Shown here: positions 8,122 to 37,780 of the stretch, piece after piece
Layout: the number at the start of each line of letters is the position of its first letter
Numbering within the stretch: the first letter of the stretch is position 1
IMG/VR virus record: IMGVR_UViG_2534682157_000015
Length of the DNA: 38,068 nucleotides
DNA from: a virus
Taxonomy: Duplodnaviria > Heunggongvirae > Uroviricota > Caudoviricetes
Reading direction: 5' to 3' (one strand)
The notes under the pieces: model-generated
What the model saw: only the letters and a program-made list of their open reading frames with translations
The model's database searches: none
Told to the model about the DNA's origin: nothing
Translations under genes and position numbers: made by a program

Positions 8122-8176
8122 ACGTTGAACAGCAAGTAAGTCAAGGTGTTAGTTAAAAAAACACCTTATAAGCCAT

Positions 8177-8860
8177 CTATGATTGAAGAGCAATCTTTCT
8201 CAACGTATCAAATACAATTTTTGTAAAATTATTTTCATTTTTAACGTCAATGTAAGCAAGAGCGTTATTAGTAATTTTAAGTTTACCAGAATACTCTAAT
8301 GAATTAACGGAGCAAACAAGTTTGTCAATTCTTATTTTCTTCCCCTCTAATTCTTCTTTATAATATTTTCTAAGGTCACTGCTGCCAATTATTTGCATTT
8401 TAGCTGTAGCGTAATCAGCGACTCTAACTCTAGAAATATCCAGCTGTGTTAGATTTATATTCACATTTGAAGATATTTCGTTGAGCCAGTCCATCGGATT
8501 TATATCAATCTCTTCTAGGCTAACGCCTAAGCCAAGATTTCTGACTAAGGCCTGTGAAAACGGTTTTAAAGTTCGCGGAGGGTTAGTAAGTTGCATTATA
8601 GGAAGAGTATCTAAAGATACACTGAAATTAGTAGTGCGGTATTCGACTCTTTCTACGATAGTTTCGCTTCCGTCAAAATTAGAAACTTGATCGTGATAAA
8701 TAATACGCTCAACAAAGCGTCCATGTGCAGAATCATGACGTATTTTATCAAAAATAAACCCTTTCCCCTTATCCTCGGTAAAAGAATCAAGAGAAAGACG
8801 TTTAACAGCTTTTTCAAATTCAAGCCGTATGTTTAATTTGAGCCACTTAACCTTCTTCAT
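8177..8860 (-). CDS. Hypothetical protein, third gene of accessory operon (227 aa)
   Basis: Start lies 14 nt inside the 3' end of the previous gene; no family recognised. Confidence 0.6.
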   Translation of the reverse strand: MKKVKWLKLNIRLEFEKAVKRLSLDSFTEDKGKGFIFDKIRHDSAHGRFVERIIYHDQVSNFDGSETIVERVEYRTTNFSVSLDTLPIMQLTNPPRTLKPFSQALVRNLGLGVSLEEIDINPMDWLNEISSNVNINLTQLDISRVRVADYATAKMQIIGSSDLRKYYKEELEGKKIRIDKLVCSVNSLEYSGKLKITNNALAYIDVKNENNFTKIVFDTLRKIALQS

Positions 8861-9926
8861 GTTCGTTTACCTCTGGTCCTATTATTATATTATAGGCATT
8901 TTCAGCGGCTGACTCAATTAATTCACTAATATGTCTTTTCTCTTGTGCCGTTGCCGCACGAATTGTCACATTGAATCCGTCTTCTTTTTGATTATTTATC
9001 CCTTTAATTTGATAGGCAAAGTCACAGCAATTTTCAGAGTCTTTGAAAAATGCTTCAACGTTAATTCTGTCACCAACTCCACTTGTCGGTTTTGAAGACC
9101 ATGCGATACGGCCTATATAATAACCTTTCTCGTGTAGTTGAGAAAATATAGGCGAACTATTAACACCTTCACCATTCAAAACAGCTTTCTTGACGAATCC
9201 GGTATCGATTGTTTCTTCTTTGTCTTCATCTTCACTTGCGTCAATATTGCGATTTAATTCTACTTTCGTTACATCATCAGTCTCATAACCATGTAGTCCA
9301 TTCATTAACTCTTGAAAGAACTGGCTTCGCAATGTAGGGTCAGTGATTGCCATTAAAGAAATTTCAAAACGTTCAATAGGCTCAGATTTGATTTTAGACA
9401 GCTCGTTTTGCAGACCCTCAATAACTTTTTTTGCCTCAGGATTCTGTGGCATACGTACTTCAACCTTGTCAACACCAGGGCGAAGTTCTATTATGACATT
9501 CCGTTTATCTATTTGACGCAGAGCGGTTTTAGATAAGTCTATTTCTTCATAGTTATATTCTACTGTCAGAGAACCATCTTTTTTCGCTACGATATTCAAG
9601 CTTTGCCCTTTACTGGGTGAACATGTTTTTTTCAATGCTTCAGCTGCGCTCTTTAATTCGGCCTGATTTGTTGTGGTCTGAAAACTCACACTGGTAATGC
9701 TTTCTCTTGGATCATATGTTTTGACCATCTTTTTTATATGCTCTAATTCATTAAAACCATGGGGGAGTTTTGATATTTCCTCGATAAGTATTTCCTTGTC
9801 GAGTTCTGGTGATAAAAAAACACCTCTATTTAGCAATAATTCATGTAATTTTGCAGGGGTTATTCTTTTATGATGCAAAGCATCATAAATATTCTTGTCA
9901 GTCGCAAAGTATAATTTTTTAGCCAT
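8847..9926 (-). CDS. Hypothetical protein, second gene of accessory operon (359 aa)
   Basis: Start overlaps upstream stop; acidic patch SEDEDKEETID; no family recognised. Confidence 0.6.
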   Translation of the reverse strand: MAKKLYFATDKNIYDALHHKRITPAKLHELLLNRGVFLSPELDKEILIEEISKLPHGFNELEHIKKMVKTYDPRESITSVSFQTTTNQAELKSAAEALKKTCSPSKGQSLNIVAKKDGSLTVEYNYEEIDLSKTALRQIDKRNVIIELRPGVDKVEVRMPQNPEAKKVIEGLQNELSKIKSEPIERFEISLMAITDPTLRSQFFQELMNGLHGYETDDVTKVELNRNIDASEDEDKEETIDTGFVKKAVLNGEGVNSSPIFSQLHEKGYYIGRIAWSSKPTSGVGDRINVEAFFKDSENCCDFAYQIKGINNQKEDGFNVTIRAATAQEKRHISELIESAAENAYNIIIGPEVNEHEEG

Positions 9927-21598: not shown

Positions 21599-21823
21599 TT
21601 AATGATATTCGTATAAGAAAAAATTTAATATAAACGCAGGTATTCCTGATTTTTTCAAAATTACATCATGAGATTTTCTATATTTGAATAGTGCTCTTAT
21701 AACTATCGTCACCAAAGTTATAACAGCTCCAATAATGGAAATCCATGCGGCAAGTGCCGCTGCCGGGGTGTTTAAAAATTCAGCATTAAATATATTAGAA
21801 CTTATTGGATTCATAACACTCAT
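21599..21823 (-). CDS. Small hypothetical membrane protein, 74 aa
   Basis: GGTGG SD 5 nt before ATG; hydrophobic segment AALAAWISIIGAVITLVTIVI; AT-rich. Confidence 0.45.
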   Translation of the reverse strand: MSVMNPISSNIFNAEFLNTPAAALAAWISIIGAVITLVTIVIRALFKYRKSHDVILKKSGIPAFILNFFLYEYH

Positions 21824-24354: not shown

Positions 24355-25733
24355 GCACAAAATTTTATACCCTGCTGACGGATATTGGCGCGGCGAAACT
24401 TGCCAGCGCCGCCGCGCTCGGTGTGCCTTTAAAAATTACCCATATGGCGGTCGGCGATGGCGGCGGAACATTACCAACGCCGGACGCAAAGCAGACAGCA
24501 CTGGTAAATGAGAAACGCCGGGCTGCGCTGAATATGCTCTATATCGACCCGCAGAACAGCAGCCAGATTATTGCTGAACAGGTGATCCCTGAAAACGAGG
24601 GCGGTTGGTGGATACGTGAAGTGGGCTTGTTTGATGAGTCCGGGGCATTGATTGCCGTGGGTAACTGCCCGGAAAGCTATAAGCCGCAACTGGCTGAAGG
24701 CAGTGGGCGTACCCAGACCGTGCGCATGGTGCTGATTACCAGCAGTACGGGCAATATCATCCTGAAAATCGACCCTGCTGTAGTGCTGGCAACCCGCAAG
24801 TATGTGGATGACAAGGCACTGGAGCTGAAGGTGTACGTGGATGACCTGATAGCAAAACATCTTGCCGCACTGGACCTGCATTCACAGTATGCACCCAAAG
24901 AAAGTCCGACATTTACCGGAACCCCCAAAGCGCCAACGCCAGCGGCGGGGAATAATACCACTCAGCTTGCGACCACCGCATTTGTTCAGGCGGCACTGAC
25001 GGCCCTGATTAATGGTGCGCCAGCCACGCTGAAAGAAATAGCCGCAGCCATTAACAATGACCCGAAATTCAGTACCACCATTAACAATGCGCTGGCACTG
25101 AAAGCGCCGCTGTCGAGTCCGGCACTCACCGGAACGCCAACAGCCCCCACGGCGGCGCAGTCGGTCAACAATACACAGATTGCCACTACGGCTTTTGTGA
25201 AATCGGCGATTGCGGCAATGGTGGGTTCTGCACCTGCGGCACTGGATACACTGAACGAACTGGCGGCGGCACTGGGGAATGATCCGAACTTTGCCACGAC
25301 AATGCTTAATGCGCTGGCAGGTAAACAACCGCTGGACAATACGCTGACTAATTTGAGTGGAAAGGATGTAGCTGGTCTTCTCACATACCTTGGTTTGGGA
25401 GAAGCCAGATATGTCATTCAGCGAGGAGCTAATGTCAATGGTGCATGGATACGCTGGTCAGATGGTGCAATAGAAGTATTTGGAACTGGTGGTTCCAATG
25501 ATAATGGGCTGGCTAAAGTCGTTTATCCAATTGCACTACCTAAGCTTTCACGTTTTATCAGCATAGCGGAAAGAATAAGAACAGATTACGAGGCCACACC
25601 TAATAACGTTCACGTTTCAATGATCGTGGATGACCAGGTCAGTAATACAGGTTTTTATGTCCGCTGCCAGATGTACGACGGAAGACCATCAACAAGTGCT
25701 TTTTCCTGGAGAGTTTATTGTGCGCCTGTTTAA
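24351..25733 (+). CDS. H: Tail fibre protein (P2 gpH-like) in its current orientation; C-terminal part lies inside the invertible segment
   Basis: Ala/Thr-rich repeated segments (TQLATTAFV, TQIATTAFV); recombination site inside the gene at 25378-25403. Confidence 0.85.
   Translation: MSTKFYTLLTDIGAAKLASAAALGVPLKITHMAVGDGGGTLPTPDAKQTALVNEKRRAALNMLYIDPQNSSQIIAEQVIPENEGGWWIREVGLFDESGALIAVGNCPESYKPQLAEGSGRTQTVRMVLITSSTGNIILKIDPAVVLATRKYVDDKALELKVYVDDLIAKHLAALDLHSQYAPKESPTFTGTPKAPTPAAGNNTTQLATTAFVQAALTALINGAPATLKEIAAAINNDPKFSTTINNALALKAPLSSPALTGTPTAPTAAQSVNNTQIATTAFVKSAIAAMVGSAPAALDTLNELAAALGNDPNFATTMLNALAGKQPLDNTLTNLSGKDVAGLLTYLGLGEARYVIQRGANVNGAWIRWSDGAIEVFGTGGSNDNGLAKVVYPIALPKLSRFISIAERIRTDYEATPNNVHVSMIVDDQVSNTGFYVRCQMYDGRPSTSAFSWRVYCAPV
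25378..25403. repeat. Left inversion crossover site (hix/gix/cix-like, 26 bp), inside tail-fibre gene
   Basis: Reverse complement TTCTCCCAAACCAAGGTATGTGAGAA matches right site in 22 of 26 positions. Confidence 0.6.
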
Positions 25734-25917: not shown

Positions 25918-26152
25918 CCCCCGGCGCGGTGCTGGTATCTGCTTCCATCACCGCGTCGATATTACCAACATCATATTCAGTCATTTCCGGTTCCGGTGGT
26001 GCTATAAACTCTCCGTCAGAATAGAACCAACCGACGCCTGCATCTATATGATCAACATTTATAATTTCGCAATTAGAGAATAAATCACCATCTCCATCCC
26101 AGATAATAATATTTTTCACCACGCCATGTTCAATCAGAGCAAAATTACTCAT
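25886..26152 (-). CDS. Putative tail-fibre assembly chaperone of the alternative (inverted) cassette, 88 aa
   Basis: Start overlaps stop of alternative fibre C-terminal ORF; assignment by position only. Confidence 0.35.
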   Translation of the reverse strand: MSNFALIEHGVVKNIIIWDGDGDLFSNCEIINVDHIDAGVGWFYSDGEFIAPPEPEMTEYDVGNIDAVMEADTSTAPGVIWPVPPEMV

Positions 26153-26885
26153 CAGGCATACTCCTCAACAATAACTATTCCCGGGGCACCGTCACCTCCC
26201 GATTGAGCCTCACTTCCAGCAGGTGCGCAGGCTCCGCCTCCGCCAGCACCAAAGCCCTCAGCTTTACCACCACCACGTCCTCTGAATGATGAAGAACTTG
26301 CACCACCTATACCGCCTGAACCTAATGGTGTATCCCCCCCGGTACCACCTGCTACAGCTTTAACAGAGATAACCATTGCTCCTGGTGTTTTTGCACTACA
26401 GCGAAATGCTCTTAGTACAGTGCCGGACGATGTCGGACTGGCACCCCATGAAATACCCTGAATATATGATGTGTTTGCAGATGCTCCCCCCGCGCCACCG
26501 CCTGTACCACCAGGTGCAGTTATCATGGAACCGAAATAAGTTGTGCCACCTTCACTACCTGAATTTCTTCCGGCTCCCCCCCTTTACCTGCAGCACCGAT
26601 AATAACGTTGACTTCGAAATCATTATCAACCTCGAAAAATGCTTCAATAAATGCGCCGCTCAATCCAGCTCCGGCTGTTGCCTGCTGATTTTCTGTTGTT
26701 TCAGGAACCCCACCGCCGCCGCCGCCACCACCAGAGGCAATGACCCTTATCTTTTTTGTCCCTGGTGTTGGGATATATTTTCCAGAACTTTTAAAAATAT
26801 TCGTGTTTAACAAACGACCAGAGAATCTGGCTTCTCCCAAACCAACGTTTATGAAAATGCAGAGATAACGGCTAACTGGCATCAT
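26152..26885 (-). pseudogene. Alternative tail-fibre C-terminal cassette (promoterless, fused to H constant part after inversion), split by a 1-nt frameshift at a G7 run (26576-26582 on plus strand)
   Basis: Begins GLGEARF mirroring GLGEARY at the H crossover; Gly-rich fibre-like sequence; ORFs 26523-26885 and 26152-26526 join if the run is read as G8. Confidence 0.6.
26832..26857. repeat. Right inversion crossover site (hix/gix/cix-like) TTCTCCCAAACCAACGTTTATGAAAA
   Basis: Inverted copy of the left site; lies just upstream of the invertase gene. Confidence 0.6.
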
Positions 26886-26912
26886 CCCCGGTTTTTATTC
26901 AGGGGATTGATC

Positions 26913-27479
26913 ATGCTTATTGGCTATGTACGCGTGTCAACAAATGACCAGAACACCGATTTGCAACGTAATGCACTGAACTGCGCGGGATGTGAGCGGA
27001 TTTTTGAGGACAAAATCAGTGGCACTAAGTCCAACAGACCGGGGCTGAAAAAACTGCTCAGGACACTATCGGCAGGAGACACGCTGGTTGTCTGGAAGCT
27101 GGACAGGTTGGGGCGCAGTATGCGGCATCTTGTTACGTTGATAGAAGAGTTGCGCCAGCGAGGTGTGAATTTCCGAAGCCTGACTGACAGTATTGATACC
27201 AGTACCCCAATGGGCCGTTTCTTTTTTCATGTCATGGGTGCCCTGGCTGAAATGGAACGCGAACTGATAGTTGAACGTACCAGGGCGGGGCTTGCTGCAG
27301 CTCGCGCCAAAGGCAGAGTAGGTGGACGCCGTCCTAAGTTGACTACCGAACAGTGGGCACAGATTGGACGCTTACTCGAGGCCGGAGAATCAAGACAGCG
27401 TATTGCACTGATTTTTGATGTGGGTGTTTCCACAATTTATAGAAAATTTCCGGCAAATAAGAGTAATGAATCCCCCTGA
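26913..27479 (+). CDS. Serine DNA invertase (Hin/Gin/Cin/Pin family), 188 aa
   Basis: N-terminus MLIGYVRVSTNDQNTDLQRNAL and GDTLVVWKLDRLGRS closely resemble Gin/Hin as recalled; ATG at 26913. Confidence 0.9.
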   Translation: MLIGYVRVSTNDQNTDLQRNALNCAGCERIFEDKISGTKSNRPGLKKLLRTLSAGDTLVVWKLDRLGRSMRHLVTLIEELRQRGVNFRSLTDSIDTSTPMGRFFFHVMGALAEMERELIVERTRAGLAAARAKGRVGGRRPKLTTEQWAQIGRLLEAGESRQRIALIFDVGVSTIYRKFPANKSNESP

Positions 27480-27527
27480 ATCAGCATTATTTTGATTATC
27501 CCTGAAAGCAGACAAATACCGTCATTT

Positions 27528-27545
27528 TGTGTGAATAACGGTACA
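27528..27545 (+). promoter_or_regulatory. Late-promoter activator dyad TGT-N12-ACA upstream of FI
   Basis: TGTgtgaataacggtACA about 77 nt upstream of FI ATG. Confidence 0.5.
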
Positions 27546-27621
27546 ACTGCGCTTAGCTGTTTGTCAGGCACAATCACTTCAACATAGGGCGAAGCCTAAT
27601 CCAATCAGGAGGTTCGCCACT

Positions 27622-28793
27622 ATGGCTCAGGATTACCACCACGGGGTGCGCGTTGTTGAAGTCAACGAAGGCACCCGATCCATTACCACGGTGAGCACTG
27701 CCATCGTGGGTATGGTATGCACGGGCGATGATGCCGATGCAAAAATGTTTCCTCTTAATAAACCCGTGCTGATCACTGATGTGCTGACTGCCAGCGGTAA
27801 AGCGGGTGAGTCAGGCACGCTGGCTCGTTCGCTGGATGCCATCGCTGACCAGGCAAAACCCGTGACCGTTGTTGTGCGTGTGCCGCAGGGTGAAACGGAA
27901 GAAGAAACCACGACCAATATCATCGGAGCAGTGACCGCTGAAGGTAAAAAACAGGCATGAAAGCCCTGTTATCTGCCCAGTCACAGCTCGGCGTTAAACC
28001 GCGCATTCTCGGCGTGCCAGGTCACGACACGAAGGCGGTAGCTACTGAGTTGCTGAGCGTGGCGCAAAGCCTGCGTGGATTTGCTTACCTGTCAGCGTAT
28101 GGTTGCAAGACGGTGCAGGAAGCAATCACTTACCGTGAAAACTTCAGTCAGCGTGAAGGAATGCTGATCTGGCCCGACTTTACTGGCTGGGACACGGTGC
28201 TGAATGCCGAAGCAACGGCTTATGCCACCGCCCGTGCGCTTGGTCTGCGCGCCAAAATTGACGAGCAGACCGGATGGCACAAAAGCCTGTCCAACGTGGG
28301 CGTTAACGGTGTCACCGGAATTTCTGCTGATGTGTTCTGGGATCTGCAGGACCCGGCAACCGATGCGGGACTGCTGAACCAGAACGACGTCACCACCCTT
28401 ATCCGCAAAGACGGTTTTCGCTTCTGGGGTTCCCGCTGCCTGAGTGATGACCCGCTCTTTGCCTTCGAAAACTACACCCGCACGGCGCAGGTGCTGACGG
28501 ACACGATGGCAGAAGCGCACATGTGGGCGGTGGATAAACCGCTGAATCCGTCGCTGGCCCGCGACATTATCGAGGGTATCCGCGCCAAAATGCGCAGCCT
28601 GGTCAGTCAGGGCTATCTCATTGGTGGTGATTGCTGGCTGGATGAGTCGGTGAACGACAAAGACACGCTGAAAGCCGGAAAACTCACCATCGACTACGAC
28701 TACACGCCAGTGCCGCCACTTGAAAACCTGATGCTGCGTCAGCGCATCACCGATCAGTACCTGGTGAATTTCTCCAGCCAGGTCAGCGCGTAA
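27622..28793 (+). pseudogene. FI: Tail sheath protein (P2 gpFI-like), interrupted by a 1-nt frameshift at an A6 run (27946-27951)
   Basis: ORFs 27622-27960 and 27957-28793 in different frames; reading the run as A7 gives one ORF of about 390 aa; N-terminus [19 protein letters not shown] sheath-like. Confidence 0.85.
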
Positions 28794-28802
28794 GGGGACA
28801 AC

Positions 28803-29318
28803 ATGGCTTTACCACGCAAATTAAAACACCTGAACCTGTTTAATGACGGGAACAACTGGCAGGGGATCGTTGAGTCGCTGACGCTGCCGAAATTTACCCG
28901 CAAATATGAGAAGTATCGCGGCGGCGGAATGCCGGGTGCAGTGGATGTGGATCTGGGGCTGGATGACGGCGCACTGGATACGGAATTTTCCATTGGTGGT
29001 ACTGAACTGCTGCTGTTTAAGCAGATGGGCAAAGCCACGGTGGATGGTATCCAGTTGCGCTTTACCGGCTCTATCCAGCGTGACGATTCCGGGGAAGTGC
29101 AGGCCGTGGAGCTTGTGGTGCGTGGACGTCACAAAGAAGTGGATTCCGGCGAGTGGAAGACGGGCGAAAGCAACACCACCAAAGTGACCAGTACCAACAG
29201 CTACGCGAAGCTGACTATAAATGGTGAGGTGCTCTATGAAGTGGACCTTATCAACATGGTGGAAATTGTGGACGGTGTGGACCTGATGGAAGCGCACCGC
29301 AACGCCCTCGGCCTCTGA
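28803..29318 (+). CDS. FII: Tail tube protein (P2 gpFII-like), 171 aa
   Basis: Size and position after sheath. Confidence 0.9.
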   Translation: MALPRKLKHLNLFNDGNNWQGIVESLTLPKFTRKYEKYRGGGMPGAVDVDLGLDDGALDTEFSIGGTELLLFKQMGKATVDGIQLRFTGSIQRDDSGEVQAVELVVRGRHKEVDSGEWKTGESNTTKVTSTNSYAKLTINGEVLYEVDLINMVEIVDGVDLMEAHRNALGL

Positions 29319-29372
29319 TGTATCTGAACGGCGCGGGATACCGCGCCAGAACCCAATTTACAGGACAGCAAA

Positions 29373-29675
29373 ATGAGCGATAAGCAGACTGAAAAGACTA
29401 TTCAACTGGATACCCCCATCAAGCGCGGTAAAACAGAAATCACCGAAATTGTGCTGCGTAAACCGCAGTCCGGTGCGCTGCGCGGTACACGCCTGCAGGC
29501 CATTATGGATATGGATGTGAACGCGATGATGACCGTGATCCCCCGCATCTCCAGTCCGGCACTGACTGCACAGGAAATTGCAGAGATGGACCCGGCAGAT
29601 CTCACTGCCATGTCGGTTGAGGTTGTCACTTTTTTGTTGAAGAAGTCGGTGCTTGCCGGTTTACCGACAGCCTGA
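29373..29675 (+). CDS. E: Tail assembly chaperone E (P2 gpE-like), 100 aa
   Basis: Position before tape measure; contains slippery TTTTTTG near 3' end. Confidence 0.8.
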   Translation: MSDKQTEKTIQLDTPIKRGKTEITEIVLRKPQSGALRGTRLQAIMDMDVNAMMTVIPRISSPALTAQEIAEMDPADLTAMSVEVVTFLLKKSVLAGLPTA

Positions 29676-29808
29676 CGGTTGACGATCTGGTGGCTGATAT
29701 CGCCACCATCTTTCACTGGCCGCCATCCGTTACTGACGTTATGCCGCTGACCGAAGTGCTGGAATGGCGGTATAAAGCGATTCAGAGAAGCGGGGCCAAC
29801 GATGAGTG
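29373..29808 (+). CDS. E': E+E' extended chaperone made by programmed -1 ribosomal frameshift at TTTTTTG (about 29630-29636)
   Basis: -1 frame after the heptamer is open to a TGA at about 29806-29808, overlapping the T start; conserved P2-family arrangement. Confidence 0.6.
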
Positions 29809-32800
29809 ATAATAACCTGCGCCTGCAGGTCATTCTTAATGCGGTTGACAAACTCACCCGCCCATTCCGTGCTGCACAGGCCAGTTCGAAAGAGCTGGCT
29901 GGCGCAATTCAGAATACCCGAAACAGCCTCAAAGAACTGAATAAGCAGGCTGGCAGAATTGATGAATTTCGCAAGACGCGCTCGCAACTAGCCATAACAG
30001 CCAACAACCTGAACGCAGCCCGCGAAGAGGCGGCAAAACTCGCCACACAATTTGCTGCCACTAACAGGCCAACCGCCGCGCAGGCAAAGTTATTCAGTCA
30101 GGCCAAAACACGAGTACAGGAACTTCAGCAGACCTATAACGGCTTGTTGGGGGCGGTCCAGAGACAACGTCAGGCACTTAAAGAATCAGGGATTGATACC
30201 AGACAACTCAGTAGTGCCCAGCGAGAACTTAAGAAAAATGCCGAAGAAACTCGTCAGGCACTGGAGGGCCAGCAAAAAGCACTTAAACGTCTGGGTGAAC
30301 AACAGGCACGGATGAACGTTGCCAGAGAACAATACTCAAGACGGCTTGAAGTGCGCGATCGCATCGCAGGAGCCGGAGCCACCACCACGGCTGCAGGGCT
30401 GGCAATGGGCGCGCCAGTGATGGCGGCGGTAAAAAGCTATACCAGCATGGAAGATGCCATGAAAGGTGTGGCAAAGCAGGTCAATGGTCTGCGTGACGAT
30501 AATGGCAACCGCACTGCGCGTTTTTACGAAATGCAGGATGCCATCAAAGCTGCCAGTGAACAGCTGCCAATGGAAAACGGTGCTGTGGACTTCGCCGCAC
30601 TGGTTGAAGGTGGTGCGCGCATGAATGTGGCAAACCCTGACGACAGCTGGGAGGACCAGAAACGTGACCTGCTGGCCTTCGCCAGTACGGCAGCAAAAGC
30701 GGCAACAGCCTTTGAGCTGCCAGCGGATGAACTGTCAGAAAGTCTGGGGAAAATCGCCCAGCTCTACAAAATACCAACCCGCAATATTGAACAGCTCGGT
30801 GATGCGCTGAACTATCTGGATGATAACGCTATGTCGAAAGGGGCAGACATCATTGATGTCATGCAACGCCTGGGCGGTGTGGCTGATCGTCTGGATTATC
30901 GTAAAGCGGCGGCGCTGGGTTCCACCTTCCTGACACTGGGGGCTGCGCCGGAGGTCGCTGCCAGTGCTGCCAACGCGATGGTGCGTGAATTGTCCATTGC
31001 GACCATGCAAAGCAAGAGTTTCTTTGAAGGAATGAATCTGCTGAAACTCAATCCTGAAGTGATTGAAAAGCAGATGACGAAGGATGCGATGGGAACTATC
31101 CAGCGCGTACTGGAGAAGGTGAACGCACTGCCGCAGGATAAGCGCCTGTCTGCCATGACCATGTTGTTTGGTAAAGAGTTTGGCGATGATGCGGCGAAAC
31201 TGGCAAACAACCTGCCGGAACTGCAGCGCCAGCTAAAACTGACAGCGGGCAATGATGCGCTCGGTTCGATGCAGAAAGAATCCGACATTAACAAGGACTC
31301 ACTTTCTGCGCAGTGGTTGCTGGTCAAAACCGGAGCGCAGAACACCTTCAGCAGCCTGGGCGAAACGCTGCGCCAGCCGCTGATGGATATTCTGTACACG
31401 GTGAAAAGCATCACGGGGGCGTTGCGTCGCTGGGTGGAAGCTAACCCTGAACTGACGGGCACACTGATGAAAGTAGCCGCGGTTGTGGCTGCTGTTACTG
31501 TGGGCCTCGGCACCCTGGCTGTGGTGTTGGCTGCTGTGCTGGGGCCGCTGGCAGTCATCCGTCTGGGATTCTCTGTGCTGGGTATCAAAACGTTACCTTC
31601 CGTTACGGCAGCAGTAACGCGAACCAGCAGCGCGTTGTCCTGGTTGGCTGGCGCACCACTTGCACTGCTGCGACGCGGGCTTGCTTCATCGGGCAACGCC
31701 GCAGGTTTACTTACTGCGCCGTTGTCGTCTTTGCGCCGCACGGCATCACTGACGGGAAATGTCCTGAAAACTGTAGCAGGTGCGCCGGTTGCACTTTTGC
31801 GGTCTGGATTATCCGGTTTACGTGCTGTTGCTGTGATGTTTATGAATCCTCTGGCGGTACTGCGCGGTGGACTGGCCTCCGCAGGCACGGTGCTGCGAGT
31901 ACTGGCATCTGGTCCACTAGCGATGCTGCGCGTTGCCCTGTATGCCGTATCTGGTCTGTTAGGTGCTCTGCTCAGTCCGATAGGTCTTGTGGTTACTGCA
32001 CTGGCGGGCGTGGCGCTGGTTGTCTGGAAATACTGGCAACCCATCACCGCATTTCTTGGTGGCGTGGTGGAAGGATTCAAAGCGGCGGCAGGTCCCGTCA
32101 GTGCAGCATTCGAACCGCTTAAGCCCGTGTTCCAGTGGATTGGCGACAAAGTACAGGCGCTGTGGGGCTGGTTTACTGATCTGCTGACGCCCGTTAAGTC
32201 GACCTCTGCCGAACTGCAGAGTGCAGCGGCAATGGGGCGGCGATTCGGGGAGGCATTGGCGGAAGGGCTGAATATGGTCATGCATCCGCTGGACTCCCTG
32301 AAATCCGGCGTTTCCTGGTTGCTGGAGAAACTCGGCATTGTCAGTAAAGAGGCTGCAAAGGCGAAACTGCCGGAAAGAGTGACGCGTCAGCAACCTGCGA
32401 CGGTGAATGCAGACGGTAAAGTGATGATGCCATCGGGTGCTTTTCCGTCATGGGGATATGGCTTTGCGGGGATGTATGACAGCGGCGGCTATATCCCGCG
32501 CGGGCAGTTTGGCATCGTCGGTGAAAACGGGCCGGAAATTGTTAACGGCCCGGCAAATGTGACCAGCCGGAGAAATACTGCTGCACTGGCTGCCGTTGTT
32601 GCCGGAATGATGGGCGTTGCTGCCGCGCCTGCAGAGCTTCCACCGTTGCATCCTTTGGCACTTCCCGCGAAAGGCGGCGAAGCGATGGTGAGTCGTGCAG
32701 CCACTGTGCCGCCCGTTCACCGGATTGAGGCACCGACGCAGATCATCATTCAGACGCAGCCAGGACAAAGTGCGCAGGATATTGCGCGGGAGGTGGCACG

Positions 32801-32879
32801 CCAGCTTGATGAACGTGAACGCAGGCTGAAGGCAAAAGCCAGGAGTAACTACAGCGATCAGGGGGGATACGACGCATGA
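29802..32879 (+). CDS. T: Tail tape measure protein (P2 gpT-like), 1025 aa
   Basis: Very long Ala/Leu-rich ORF after E/E'. Confidence 0.9.
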   Translation: MSDNNLRLQVILNAVDKLTRPFRAAQASSKELAGAIQNTRNSLKELNKQAGRIDEFRKTRSQLAITANNLNAAREEAAKLATQFAATNRPTAAQAKLFSQAKTRVQELQQTYNGLLGAVQRQRQALKESGIDTRQLSSAQRELKKNAEETRQALEGQQKALKRLGEQQARMNVAREQYSRRLEVRDRIAGAGATTTAAGLAMGAPVMAAVKSYTSMEDAMKGVAKQVNGLRDDNGNRTARFYEMQDAIKAASEQLPMENGAVDFAALVEGGARMNVANPDDSWEDQKRDLLAFASTAAKAATAFELPADELSESLGKIAQLYKIPTRNIEQLGDALNYLDDNAMSKGADIIDVMQRLGGVADRLDYRKAAALGSTFLTLGAAPEVAASAANAMVRELSIATMQSKSFFEGMNLLKLNPEVIEKQMTKDAMGTIQRVLEKVNALPQDKRLSAMTMLFGKEFGDDAAKLANNLPELQRQLKLTAGNDALGSMQKESDINKDSLSAQWLLVKTGAQNTFSSLGETLRQPLMDILYTVKSITGALRRWVEANPELTGTLMKVAAVVAAVTVGLGTLAVVLAAVLGPLAVIRLGFSVLGIKTLPSVTAAVTRTSSALSWLAGAPLALLRRGLASSGNAAGLLTAPLSSLRRTASLTGNVLKTVAGAPVALLRSGLSGLRAVAVMFMNPLAVLRGGLASAGTVLRVLASGPLAMLRVALYAVSGLLGALLSPIGLVVTALAGVALVVWKYWQPITAFLGGVVEGFKAAAGPVSAAFEPLKPVFQWIGDKVQALWGWFTDLLTPVKSTSAELQSAAAMGRRFGEALAEGLNMVMHPLDSLKSGVSWLLEKLGIVSKEAAKAKLPERVTRQQPATVNADGKVMMPSGAFPSWGYGFAGMYDSGGYIPRGQFGIVGENGPEIVNGPANVTSRRNTAALAAVVAGMMGVAAAPAELPPLHPLALPAKGGEAMVSRAATVPPVHRIEAPTQIIIQTQPGQSAQDIAREVARQLDERERRLKAKARSNYSDQGGYDA

Positions 32880-33361
32880 TGATGGTGCTGGGATTGTACG
32901 TGTTTATGCTGCGCACCGTTCCGTATCAGGAACTGCAGTATCAACGCAGCTGGCGACATGCGGCAAACAGCCGGGTAAACCGTCGTCCGTCCACGCAATT
33001 TCTGGGACCGGACAACGACATGCTGACGCTTTCTGGTGTTCTTATGCCGGAGATAACGGGCGGCAGGCTGTCGTTGCTGGCTCTGGAGCAGATGGCAGAA
33101 CAGGGAAAAGCATGGCCCCTGATTGAAGGCAGCGGCACGATTTACGGCATGTATGTGATTGAGGGACTGAATCAGACTAAAACGGAGTTTTTCCGCGATG
33201 GTATGCCGCGCCGGATTGAGTTTACCCTGTCGCTCAAACGGGTGGATGAATCCCTGTCCGATATGTTCGGTGATCTCAGTGCGCAGCTGAATAATTTGCA
33301 GGATACGGCAACGTCTGCCTTAAGCGATATCAGTAAAACGGTGGGAGGGCTGCTGTCGTGA
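32876..33361 (+). CDS. U: Tail protein (P2 gpU-like), 161 aa
   Basis: Size and position as P2 U. Confidence 0.85.
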   Translation: MMMVLGLYVFMLRTVPYQELQYQRSWRHAANSRVNRRPSTQFLGPDNDMLTLSGVLMPEITGGRLSLLALEQMAEQGKAWPLIEGSGTIYGMYVIEGLNQTKTEFFRDGMPRRIEFTLSLKRVDESLSDMFGDLSAQLNNLQDTATSALSDISKTVGGLLS

Positions 33362-34458
33362 ATTTCAGCTCTGAACTGCTTAACAAAGGCAACAAAACTC
33401 CCGCATTCAGCATCAGTATTGAGGGGAAGGATATCACCACTGTGCTGGACAAACGCCTGATGGGGCTTACGCTGACGGATAACCGGGGCTTTGAAGCGGA
33501 CCAGCTTGATCTGGAGCTGGACGACGCCGACGGAAAAATCGTGCTGCCGCGCCGTGGTGCGGTCATTACGCTGGCGCTGGGCTGGAAGGGGCAGCCGCTT
33601 TTCCCGAAAGGGGCATTCACGGTGGACGAGATTGAACACACTGGCGCACCGGACCGCCTGACTATCCGGGCGCGAAGTGCTGATTTTCGTGAAACGCTGA
33701 ATACCCGCCGTGAAAAGTCGTGGCACAAGACCACCGTTGGGGAAGTGGTGAAGGAAATAGCTGCGCGGCACAAACTGAAGATGGCATTGGGTAAAGATCT
33801 GTCAGATAAACCCGTGGAACATATAGACCAGACCAATGAGAGTGACGGCAGTTTTCTGATGCGGCTGGCGCGCCAGTACGGTGCTATTTCATCGGTGAAA
33901 AATGGCAATCTGTTATTCATCCGGCAGGGTCAGGGCAAAAGTGCCAGCGGTAAACCACTGCCGGTGATAACTATCACACGTAAGGACGGCGACAGTCACC
34001 GCTTTACCCTGGCAGATCGCGGAGCTTACACGGGCGTAATTGCCAGCTGGTTGCATACCCGCGAACCCGCGAAGAAAGAAAGCACCACGGTGAAGCGTAA
34101 GCGCAGGACTAAGAAGCAGAAGAAAGAGCCGGAAGCGAAGCAGGGCGATTACCTGGTGGGTACGGATGAAAACGTGCTGGTACTCAATCGCACCTATGCC
34201 AACCGGAGTAACGCCGAACGGGCAGCGAAAATGCAGTGGGAACGCCTGCAACGCGGCGTTGCGTCATTCTCGCTACAACTGGCGGAAGGGCGGGCAGATC
34301 TCTACACGGAAATGCCTGTGAAGGTCAGTGGTTTTAAACAGCCGATAGATGATGCGGAATGGACCATTACGACTCTGACACATACCGTCAGCCCGGATAA
34401 CGGTTTTACGACCAGTCTGGAGCTTGAAGTGAGGATTGATGATTTCGAAATGGAATGA
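33358..34458 (+). CDS. D: Tail protein / late control protein D (P2 gpD-like), 366 aa
   Basis: Size and position as P2 D. Confidence 0.85.
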   Translation: MNFSSELLNKGNKTPAFSISIEGKDITTVLDKRLMGLTLTDNRGFEADQLDLELDDADGKIVLPRRGAVITLALGWKGQPLFPKGAFTVDEIEHTGAPDRLTIRARSADFRETLNTRREKSWHKTTVGEVVKEIAARHKLKMALGKDLSDKPVEHIDQTNESDGSFLMRLARQYGAISSVKNGNLLFIRQGQGKSASGKPLPVITITRKDGDSHRFTLADRGAYTGVIASWLHTREPAKKESTTVKRKRRTKKQKKEPEAKQGDYLVGTDENVLVLNRTYANRSNAERAAKMQWERLQRGVASFSLQLAEGRADLYTEMPVKVSGFKQPIDDAEWTITTLTHTVSPDNGFTTSLELEVRIDDFEME

Positions 34459-34548
34459 TTCTTCGCAATGGAGAACTTTTAAGTTTGCGAAATGGAATAA
34501 TGCGGTATCATTATTGTGATTTTAGCAAAAATGGGGAGAACTCGAAAA

Positions 34549-34767
34549 ATGATGATTTGCCCACTGTGTGGAAGTGCCGCCCATACTCGCAGCAGTTTTC
34601 AGGTATCTTCATTGACCAAAGAGCGTTACAACCAGTGCCAGAATATTAACTGCAGCCATACTTTTGTTACCCATGAAACTTTTGTTCGTTCGATTGCAAC
34701 GCCAAAAGAGTCAAATCCGGTTCAGCCGCATCCAATGAAATCAGGACAGGTGGCGCTCTCTCTTTGA
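34549..34767 (+). CDS. ogr: Ogr/B-type zinc-finger late-gene activator, about 72 aa
   Basis: CPLCG ... CQNINCSHTF Cys4 arrangement; last phage gene before the host junction. Confidence 0.8.
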   Translation: MMICPLCGSAAHTRSSFQVSSLTKERYNQCQNINCSHTFVTHETFVRSIATPKESNPVQPHPMKSGQVALSL

Positions 34768-34853
34768 CGCTGCCGCCATTTTGTCGCCATCGATAAAAAA
34801 CAGTGCTTCTAACATCATGATTTTAAAAGGCATAAATTTCAGGCAACAAAAAA

Positions 34854-34890
34854 CCCATCAACCTTGAACCGAAATGGCGGGGTTGATGGG
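34854..34890 (-). terminator. Hairpin plus T-tract on minus strand; probable host intrinsic terminator downstream of ybjL
   Basis: CCCATCAACC-17nt-GGTTGATGGG followed on minus strand by TTTTTTGTT. Confidence 0.4.
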
Positions 34891-35002
34891 CTCCACAAAA
34901 TGGGGACATCAAAGAAAAGCAGTGGCACTAATTAAGACTGATGCCCTGCGGAAAAGTTCTGCGGTTGTGCAAAAAAATTTCATTTTCAGGGCAACTTCAG
35001 TT

Positions 35003-36688
35003 TTATCCTAATCCTGGCCATACCATGACGATGATTGTCCCTGCCAGCGTCAGCAGGACGTTGGCGATTGCATAGGTGCCCGCATAGCCCAGCGCCGGGA
35101 TGTTACTGCGAGCTGTATCACTGATGATCTCCATTGCCGGCGCGCAGGTACGTGCGCCCATCATTGCGCCGAACAACAGTGCGCGGTTCATTCGCAATAC
35201 ATAAGCACCGAACAAGAAACAGATAACCACGGGCACCAGACTGACAATCAATCCGGCAATCAACATCTGACCGCCAATCGCGCCCAGGCCGTTATTAATA
35301 CCGCTACCGGCGCTCAGACCAACGCCTGCCATAAACACCATCAAGCCGAACTCTTTCACCATGCTTAATGCACCTTGCGGAATGTAACCGAAGGTCGGGT
35401 GGTTAGCACGCATAAAGCCCAGCATAATTCCGGCGAATAACAACCCGGCAGCGTTCCCCATGCCGAAACTGAATGTGCTGAACTGGAAGGTGATCATCCC
35501 GATCATCAGCCCAATAACAAAGAAGGCGCAGAATGCCAGCAGGTCAGTGACCTGGCTGTGAATCGAGATAAAGCCGATGCGATCGGCGATGGTTTTTACG
35601 CGGCGGGCATCGCCGCTGACTTGTAAAACGTCACCTTTGTTAAGCACGACGTTGTCATCTATCGGCATCTCAATCTGGCTACGAATGACGCGGTTAAGGA
35701 AGCAACCGTGATCGGTCAACTTCAGTTGTGCGAGACGTTTACCTACAGCGTTATGGTTTTTAACGACCACTTCTTCAGTGACGATACGCATGTCGAGAAG
35801 GTCGCGATCGAAAACTTCTTTGCCGTTACGGAAGCTGGGATCGAGTCGGGCGTGGGCGTCGGGATAGCCTACCAACGCTATTTCATCGCCCATTTGTAGC
35901 ACGGCATCACCGTCTGGATTTGCCAGAATCCCGTTACGTCGAATACGTTCAATGTAGCAGCCGGTTTGTCGATAAATACCCAGTTCACGCAGATTTTTGC
36001 CGTCGGTCCAGGCCACCAGTTCCGGGCCGACGCGATAGGCGCGGATCACCGGTAAATAAACCTTACGGTTGGCATCAGTGTCCAGGCCACGTTCGCGGGC
36101 GATTTGCTGGGCGCTGGTCTGTAAGTCCTGATGCTGCAATTTCGGCAAGTAACGCGCACCAACAATCAAACTCACCAGACCGATTAAATAGGTTAAGGCA
36201 TACCCGAGGCTCAGATTATCCAGTGCCAGTGAGAGCTGCCTGCTTTCCATGCCGGAATGACGCAGTGTATCGCCAGCACCGACCAGAACCGGTGTCGACG
36301 TCATAGAGCCTGCTAACATACCGGCCGTCAGGCCAATATCCCAGCCAAACAGCTTACCTAACCCTAAGGCGATCACCAGCGCACTGCCAACCATCACCAG
36401 TGCTAACATTAGGTAATTTTTCCCATCGCGAAAAAAAATGGAAAAAAAGTTCGGTCCGGCTTCGACCCCGACGCAGAAAATAAACAGCATAAAGCCAAGA
36501 TTAAGCGCATCGGTGTTAATGCTGAAATGTTGTTGGCCTAATAACAGCGATACGACTAAAACGCCAATGGAATTACCCAGTTGGATCGAACCAAGTCGTA
36601 ACTTTCCGAGACATAGCCCAAGCGCGAGGACCACAAATAATAACAGAATGTAATTCCCATTTAACAATTCGGCGACGTTTATATTCAC
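35003..36688 (-). CDS. ybjL: Putative transport protein YbjL (AAE-type transporter), 561 aa
   Basis: Polytopic membrane protein with central soluble domain; sequence recognised as E. coli YbjL. Confidence 0.85.
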
Positions 36689-36974
36689 GGAGGCTAACTT
36701 CTTGTTTACTAGTAAGCTGTTGAAAGAAATGGTAATTTACGATAATGTTTTTTACCAGAATTCAGGGCGCAGATTCATTCAGCGCACCTAAACGATAGTA
36801 AAGTAACAATATATTTTACTAGTGTAATCACATTAGGTATCAACGGCTATATGAATTGCGTTGGCCTATATTAGCATGGAATGCGAAGCGGCTTTATCTT
36901 ACTGAACGCCACACTGGCGAAAAATGTGTTCGATAGACGCAGTGTCAGGAGGAACGAGTGAAACATAAACAACG

Positions 36975-37334
36975 TTGGCGGGGGCAATCTGCTGTTTTGT
37001 CCTCTTCATTGTGGTGTGCCTTTTTCTGGCGACGCACATGAAAGGCGCTTTTCGGGCTGCCGGGCATCCTGAAATCGGCTTGCTATTTTTCATTCTTCCT
37101 GGAGCAGTCGCCAGCTTCTTTTCACAGCGTAGAGAAGTCCTGAAACCTCTGTTTGGCGCAATGCTGGCGGCACCCTGTTCGATGCTCATTATGCGGCTGT
37201 TTTTTTCACCGACGCGCTCATTCTGGCAAGAGCTGGCATGGTTACTAAGCGCGGTGTTCTGGTGTGCGCTGGGGGCACTGTGTTTCTTATTTATCAGTAG
37301 TTTGTTTAAACCACAGCACAGAAAAAATCAGTAA
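36975..37334 (+). CDS. ybjM: Inner membrane protein YbjM (start uncertain)
   Basis: Hydrophobic 119-aa ORF between ybjL and grxA; track start is TTG. Confidence 0.6.
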   Translation: MAGAICCFVLFIVVCLFLATHMKGAFRAAGHPEIGLLFFILPGAVASFFSQRREVLKPLFGAMLAAPCSMLIMRLFFSPTRSFWQELAWLLSAVFWCALGALCFLFISSLFKPQHRKNQ

Positions 37335-37363
37335 AGCCCTCAACGCGAGGGCTTGTCAGACGA

Positions 37364-37621
37364 TCAGGCGTCCAGATTTTCTTTCACCCATGCAGCAAAA
37401 TCGGTATAGCCGCCGATATGTTGCTGATCGACAAAAATCTGCGGCACGGTTTCTACGGGTTTACCTGCCTTTTGTTGTAGATCTTCTTTAGTGATCCCTT
37501 CCGCACGAATATCTACATACTGATACTGAAAATCATCGCGTTCATTGCTCAATTTCTCAGCCAGATCTTTTGCACGCACACAGTAAGGGCAACCCGAACG
37601 ACCAAAAATAACGGTTTGCAT
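37364..37621 (-). CDS. grxA: Glutaredoxin 1, 85 aa
   Basis: CPYC active site in MQTVIFGRSGCPYCVRA; ATG at 37621. Confidence 0.9.
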   Translation of the reverse strand: MQTVIFGRSGCPYCVRAKDLAEKLSNERDDFQYQYVDIRAEGITKEDLQQKAGKPVETVPQIFVDQQHIGGYTDFAAWVKENLDA

Positions 37622-37780
37622 TATTTCTCTCCTCATAGATTTATGCCTGTAATGATCACGCTAAAATGTATTCGCTGAAAGTAGGTTTAACCTGTTGCAT
37701 TAATTGCTAAAAGCTATAACTGTTAAACACAATACAGTGAAAAGTTTTAGACTGAAGGCTCACTTTGCAGAGGGAAGCGT

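Follow-up and report, generated by a model that had tools for sequence, protein, structure and literature searches.

The frameshift that splits the tail sheath gene of this P2-like prophage is very likely a 454 homopolymer undercall, in which a run of seven adenines (A7) was read as six (A6) in the draft genome of Escherichia coli DG131. The gene concerned, a homologue of P2 FI, lies at 27622-28793 on the plus strand of the stretch of DNA analysed here (38,068 nt in full, hereafter the window), where the deposited letters give it in two pieces and an A7 reading of the run gives a single ORF of 390 aa. We favour an undercall over a genuine mutation because the source is a 454-only assembly, because the near-clonal sisters have A7 and because the window shows six more homopolymer deletions against three substitutions. 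The frameshift very probably belongs to the deposited sequence and not to the organism, and the real genome would most probably contain a P2-like prophage with a normal sheath gene. A preliminary description of this region had offered two causes, a homopolymer error or a genuine inactivation; this was the right pair, and the evidence strongly favours the sequencing error.

The window contains a P2-like (Peduoviridae) prophage in which the integrase is encoded at the left end. Genes for the head, lysis, the baseplate, the tail fibres and a Hin-type invertase are followed by those for the sheath, the tube, E/E', the tape measure, U, D and ogr, which show the synteny of the P2 late operon. The insertion site adjoins ybjL-ybjM-grxA of the E. 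coli chromosome.

Between dinI and the portal gene a cluster of three genes was found on the minus strand (8177-10927; cluster and neighbour, 8177-10927 and 11477-12559), giving full-length matches to PADLOC Hp3, Hp2 and Hp1 with E values from 5e-144 to 5e-245. The precomputed Pfam assignments of this cluster are GAPS4b_N and PDDEXK_GAPS4, and a neighbouring gene encodes a protein of 360 aa whose M48 peptidase motif is weak. The cluster is probably anti-phage cargo.

As deposited, the run at 27946-27951 (plus strand) is exactly A6, in the context GAA GGT AAA AAA CAG GCA TGA. The first ORF (27622-27960, plus strand) encodes an N-terminal sheath fragment of 112 aa that matches Pfam Gp18_domIII_N (E 3.7e-12) and ends in ...GKKQA*, its final two residues and the stop being out of frame. 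The second ORF (27957-28793, plus strand) encodes the remainder of the sheath, 278 aa with the Pfam domains Phage_sheath_1 (E 2.2e-31) and Phage_sheath_1C (E 1.6e-23), and is offset by -1 relative to the first. Its ATG, which is the codon for Met-113 of the intact sheath, overlaps the TGA of the first ORF (ATGA). The A6 run and the two ORFs in different frames are thus exactly as they had been reported beforehand, and the ORF of about 390 aa that had been predicted for an A7 reading is obtained, at 390 aa, when one A is inserted in the run.

The product of this repaired ORF is 100% identical to WP_000046140.1, as the sheath, also of 390 aa, is annotated in the complete genomes of the E. coli strains 65COLEC and 214-4. 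There are zero amino-acid changes between the two proteins and therefore no sign of decay. The assignment of the gene as a P2-type tail sheath gene FI, first made from the letters alone, is borne out by Pfam, by PHROG (phrog_23, 'tail sheath', E 2.5e-146 for the repaired sheath) and by the alignment with the R-pyocin sheath 3J9Q, where residues 5-383 of the repaired sheath align with residues 3-381 (E 1.6e-68). In this alignment the junction matches AAGERTGLQALL without gaps, which holds only when the run is read as A7. The phage and E. coli relatives that were retrieved first all have A7 and an annotated full-length sheath. The deposited gene does not form a single ORF of about 390 aa, as the spanning sisters fetched and the A7-repaired version do. 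Since the A7 repair gives a known full-length sheath and the relatives have A7, the split is a true property of the deposited sequence and no chance pair of ORFs.

Five PHROG families of 'unknown function' (phrog_11242, 13288, 12477, 16736 and 20365) match only parts of the repaired sheath, and from these partial matches they look as if they had been seeded by fragmented sheath genes.

In pyrosequencing, a run of identical bases is recorded as one light pulse and long runs tend to be undercounted. Positions 17622-37960 of the window are 100% identical to AFDV01000032.1 of assembly GCA_000225125.2, and AFDV00000000 is the genome of E. coli DG131, a Shiga-toxin-producing O174:H8 strain from sheep (PMC3491183). 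The DG131 draft was produced with 454 Titanium FLX alone and assembled with Celera v6.0, with no second platform (PMC3491183), and is accordingly a pyrosequencing assembly without polishing by another platform. A true A7 in the sheath gene, if called as A6 by 454, would shift the frame and split the intact 390-aa gene into pieces of 112 and 278 aa. From the comparisons that follow we infer that the DNA of DG131 itself has A7.

Near-clonal sisters of the prophage were obtained by exact-protein look-ups with the tape-measure protein of the window, a cargo protein and a fibre fragment, and in the independent assemblies so found this prophage again occupies the ybjL site. Four of them (L042, L044, which is the complete genome CP027328.1, L047 and L049) are mutually identical over 27480-38068 of the window and depart from it at one substituted position (29088) and at two runs in which the window is one base short, namely A7 to A6 in the sheath gene and G3 to G2 in ybjM. 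A fifth, L035, differs by 2 substitutions in 8.9 kb and also has A7, so that A7 is present in all five sisters standing at 0-2 substitutions from the window. The 390-aa sheath is also encoded in all seven other places listed for the exact tape-measure protein (seven among 23 similar places). The comparison with intact FI in related prophages, which had been suggested as a check, thus gave A7 and an intact sheath in every spanning near-clonal sister fetched, and A7 was likewise present in all the other close relatives examined.

Within its clade the sheath lesion is private to the DG131 assembly. An inherited decay of the gene is not what we observe, because the lesion is private in the clade, the repaired product is unchanged and the lesions are all of one technical type. 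The other cause to be weighed is a very recent, real one-base deletion in DG131 that inactivated the sheath gene and left the prophage unable to build contractile tails, which we consider unlikely. In its favour, slippage in A runs is a common kind of real mutation in nature. Nevertheless the deletion is absent from every spanning near-clonal sister fetched, so that it would have to be private to one 454-only assembly, and the repaired protein is without any amino-acid change. A real mutation here would amount to the ordinary, recent inactivation of a single prophage gene.

The spectrum of differences across the window also bears on the choice between an undercall and a real deletion. Over approximately 36.6 kb compared with the sisters there are 3 substitutions, 7 one-base deletions and no one-base insertions, and all seven deletions fall in single-base runs; against L037 alone, over 1479-22557, the window differs by two substitutions and is one base short at each of four runs. 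Genuine differences between near-clonal E. coli genomes are mostly substitutions. Because deletions here outnumber substitutions, the spectrum of the window is taken as technical, and the six private homopolymer deletions that the DG131 assembly has besides that of the sheath gene, against three substitutions, are a ratio not expected from real divergence.

Five of the seven deletions break genes, which encode the capsid scaffold gpO, a DUF6216 protein, a tail-fibre segment, the sheath and the host protein YbjM. In all five cases the gene is mended by the addition of one base, and the products are then identical or nearly identical to intact homologues. The run at 16210-16214 (plus strand) is A5 in the window and A6 in the sisters, and breaks the scaffold gene gpO (214 aa vs 277); the truncated gpO product was found only in the DG131 assembly in an index of 153 billion genes. 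The run at 21618-21623 (plus strand) is A6 and is A7 in the sisters, and it breaks a minus-strand DUF6216 gene (172 aa vs 268), which is restored to 268 aa by one base and is intact in L037, L039, L042, L044 and L046. At 36977-36978 (plus strand) the window reads GG, against GGG in each of the 15 other E. coli loci compared, which puts the conserved host gene ybjM out of frame; that one of the companion deletions hits a conserved host gene also speaks against a real deletion in the sheath gene. Two further one-base deletions are intergenic: the run at 8155-8161 (plus strand) is A7 and that at 11371-11375 (plus strand) is T5, vs A8 and T6, respectively, in sisters L037 and L039. The deletions at 16210, 21618, 36977, 8155 and 11371 all look like 454 undercalls.

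The remaining deletion is of a different standing. The run at 26576-26582 (plus strand) is C7 in the window and C8 in L004 and L042, and it splits the glycine-rich alternative C-terminal segment of the tail fibre, encoded on the minus strand, into ORFs of 120 aa and 124 aa (26152-26526 and 26523-26885, both minus strand); the segment is intact in L004 and L042. However, L035, an independent assembly of 2017, is 100% identical to the window at this run, C7 included. Because it is common to L035, the C7 in this run, which codes for poly-glycine, may be a real polymorphism, and the homopolymer differences in the window are therefore not necessarily all errors.

This fibre segment, of 1.4 kb, is flanked by 33-nt inverted repeats (25378-25410 and 26825-26857) that are 88% complementary, and the gene for the Hin-type invertase (26907-27479) adjoins it. 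Two of the sisters, L035 and L042, have the segment in the other orientation, and the switch is therefore active in this lineage. The tail-fibre gene H has, at 25024, a 9-nt in-frame deletion compared with L004, L042 and L044, which leaves one CACGCTGGA copy fewer and a protein of 460 aa vs 463 aa. In L044 (CP027328.1), the match to 25918-26770 shows five one-base deletions in C/G runs vs the window and the other sisters, located only within the invertible segment; these are probably errors of the consensus at a place where the segment is present in either orientation.

The three substitutions private to the window (10840, 13987 and 29088) are all T in the window and A in the sisters, the one at 29088 changing Thr to Ser in the tube protein, and they may be sequencing errors too. 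A mismatch-repair mutator was considered and rejected as an origin of the spectrum, since all three are A-to-T transversions and there are no transitions such as those mutators give; this also weakens the case for a real deletion. No further frameshift was found, by gene lengths and coordinates, in approximately 4.8 kb more of host DNA (L045). A look-up of the 98-aa YbjM product gave other strains, this product being a common alternative start call. Most 7-base runs in the window (16) were called correctly, which counts against an undercall. The conserved host gene ybjL served as a control: within 36431-36448, its A8 run is miscounted as A7 or A9 in L004, L010, L011, L020 and L030, where gene calls give ybjL as split or marked as frameshifted, and L004 also shortens the adjoining A7 run to A6; in the window both ybjL runs are correct. 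The assemblies that miscount the A8 run of ybjL also carry other broken genes or miscounted runs.

The A6 allele is also found outside the clade of the window, in prophage backbones unrelated to it and for the most part in assemblies prone to error. The exact 112-aa fragment is present on 69 contigs and the exact 278-aa fragment on 24, and the contigs with the 112-aa fragment represent two attachment sites and different fibre modules. Over the 1.17 kb of the gene the A6 copies are 25-57 substitutions apart, and the copy in the window is 4 substitutions from an A7 copy. On this evidence A6 is polyphyletic, or homoplastic, as is also seen from L026 and L030, which fall in a different host clade that includes L046 with A7. 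Exact matches to the A7 86-mer were found in 68 records of RefSeq complete E. coli genomes, and exact matches to the A6 85-mer in none. A scan of genome contigs for the A6 pattern gave no matches.

Several of the assemblies with A6 are themselves of doubtful run lengths. In L010 and L016, both with A6, the lengths of many other runs are wrong as well, and L030, the parent of the IMG/VR contig L009, also reads the G5 run of the tape measure as G4 and the A8 run of the host ybjL as A7. L026 and L030 both have the A6 run and, upstream of the sheath gene, an insertion of the IS66 family; the host clade in which they fall stands at 15-16 substitutions from the window. That the A6 common to L009, L026 and L030 is an inherited real mutation was considered and rejected, as they stand in this other clade, whose third member L046 has A7; such a reading was dropped because the clade of the window is all A7 except for the window. 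L026, which dates from the same period as the DG131 assembly, agrees with the window in having A6 at both the sheath and the DUF6216 runs; this double match, which counts against an undercall, needs either a site-specific systematic error or a parallel real mutation.

The IS66-family element lies between the invertase and sheath genes, at 6999-9621 of L026 and at the left ends of L009 and L030, with its junction at 27465-27472 of the window. The two IS66-bearing assemblies, from the DEC collection, are identical over 10.6 kb. The junction of IS66 and sheath gene of L009 was found in no RefSeq complete E. coli genome.

Other copies of A6 occur in clean-looking recent assemblies, namely L012 and, at the smpB site, L025, L027 and L032, and two megahit metagenome contigs (L029 and L031) have A8, which gives an N-terminal fragment of 125 aa. 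L025 and L032 have in common a 4-nt deletion in the tape measure. These copies suggest that real A6 alleles probably exist in other lineages and that the tract is probably a genuine mutational hotspot there. They are also the points that lend some weight to a real deletion in DG131: A6 in clean-looking later assemblies of other lineages and A8 in the two metagenome contigs, one smpB-site lineage with a 4-nt tape-measure deletion as well, and an IS66-family insertion just upstream of FI in the DEC sister prophages, by which the family does decay.

It could further be proposed that the A7 tract is a hypermutable switch, in which A6 and A8 arise repeatedly and reversibly turn off tail production, the A6 of DG131 being a real variant. 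This would fit the A6 in several clean-looking assemblies at a different attachment site and the A8 in two metagenome contigs, but the clonal relatives of the window are all A7, and we regard such a switch as very unlikely in DG131. The occurrence of A6 and A8 elsewhere leaves the picture within the own clade of the window unchanged.

We also considered that A6 might be real and the sheath nevertheless expressed, either by -1 ribosomal or transcriptional slippage or as an ATGA-coupled sheath in two pieces that assembles, an idea to which we give almost no credence. The wild-type GKKTGMK would be regained exactly by a -1 shift at the A run, and the ATG of the second ORF overlaps the TGA of the first. 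However, the homologues have A7 in frame and need no shift, the heptamer in the zero frame, U AAA AAA, does not follow the canonical X XXY YYZ, and the 79 nt downstream have a minimum free energy of -18.2 kcal/mol (z = +0.65), no better than that of shuffled sequences. The sheath is a major structural protein that is needed in many copies, and low-level slippage would presumably not suffice for it. In addition, the premise of a real A6 is itself unlikely. Low-level compensatory frameshifting on run indels has been documented for the G7 run of the herpesvirus thymidine kinase (PMC5009743), which provides a precedent for such expression. A programmed or compensatory frameshift at the sheath run was rejected, given that there is no canonical heptamer and no structure and that the run is in frame in the homologues.

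A canonical T TTT TTG heptamer is found at 29630-29636, in the frame of the tail chaperone gene E (29373-29675) and upstream of a GpE-family ORF; by its motif and position it is the expected P2 E/E' programmed -1 frameshift site.

Returning to the homopolymer undercall, some caution is called for in the use of such sequences. In this 454-only draft, a P2-like prophage that is very probably intact and probably functional gives the impression of being defective in four genes or more, and ybjM, a conserved host gene, that of being a pseudogene. The sheath fragments of 112 aa and 278 aa are already in protein databases, and surveys of prophage integrity or of pseudogenes that include assemblies of this kind would overcount decay.

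When compared with known systems, the sheath gene has the same domains (Gp18_domIII_N, Phage_sheath_1 and Phage_sheath_1C) as P2 gpFI and the R-type pyocin sheath PA0622 (PDB 3J9Q). It differs from them in that the gene deposited in the window is in two frames, whereas the sisters and the repaired version are ordinary full-length members of the family. The sheath run is in the same tail operon as the P2 E/E' programmed -1 frameshift. However, the E/E' site, 1.7 kb further downstream, is one that all relatives require, whereas the sheath run is in frame in all relatives and is without a slippery heptamer or a stimulatory structure. The 'savior' indels of the herpesvirus thymidine kinase G7 run (PMC5009743) resemble the present case as a one-base change in a 7-base run of an essential viral gene, in which slippage could in principle restore some sheath product, but the sheath indel is unsupported in the DNA and is without a selective rationale. 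With respect to 454 homopolymer undercalls, one of the affected runs has only 3 bases (GGG in ybjM) and the C7 difference is common to a later independent assembly, which is unlike that type of error; the 454-only source, the one-base deletions confined to runs, the lack of one-base insertions and the excess of deletions over substitutions are all like it.
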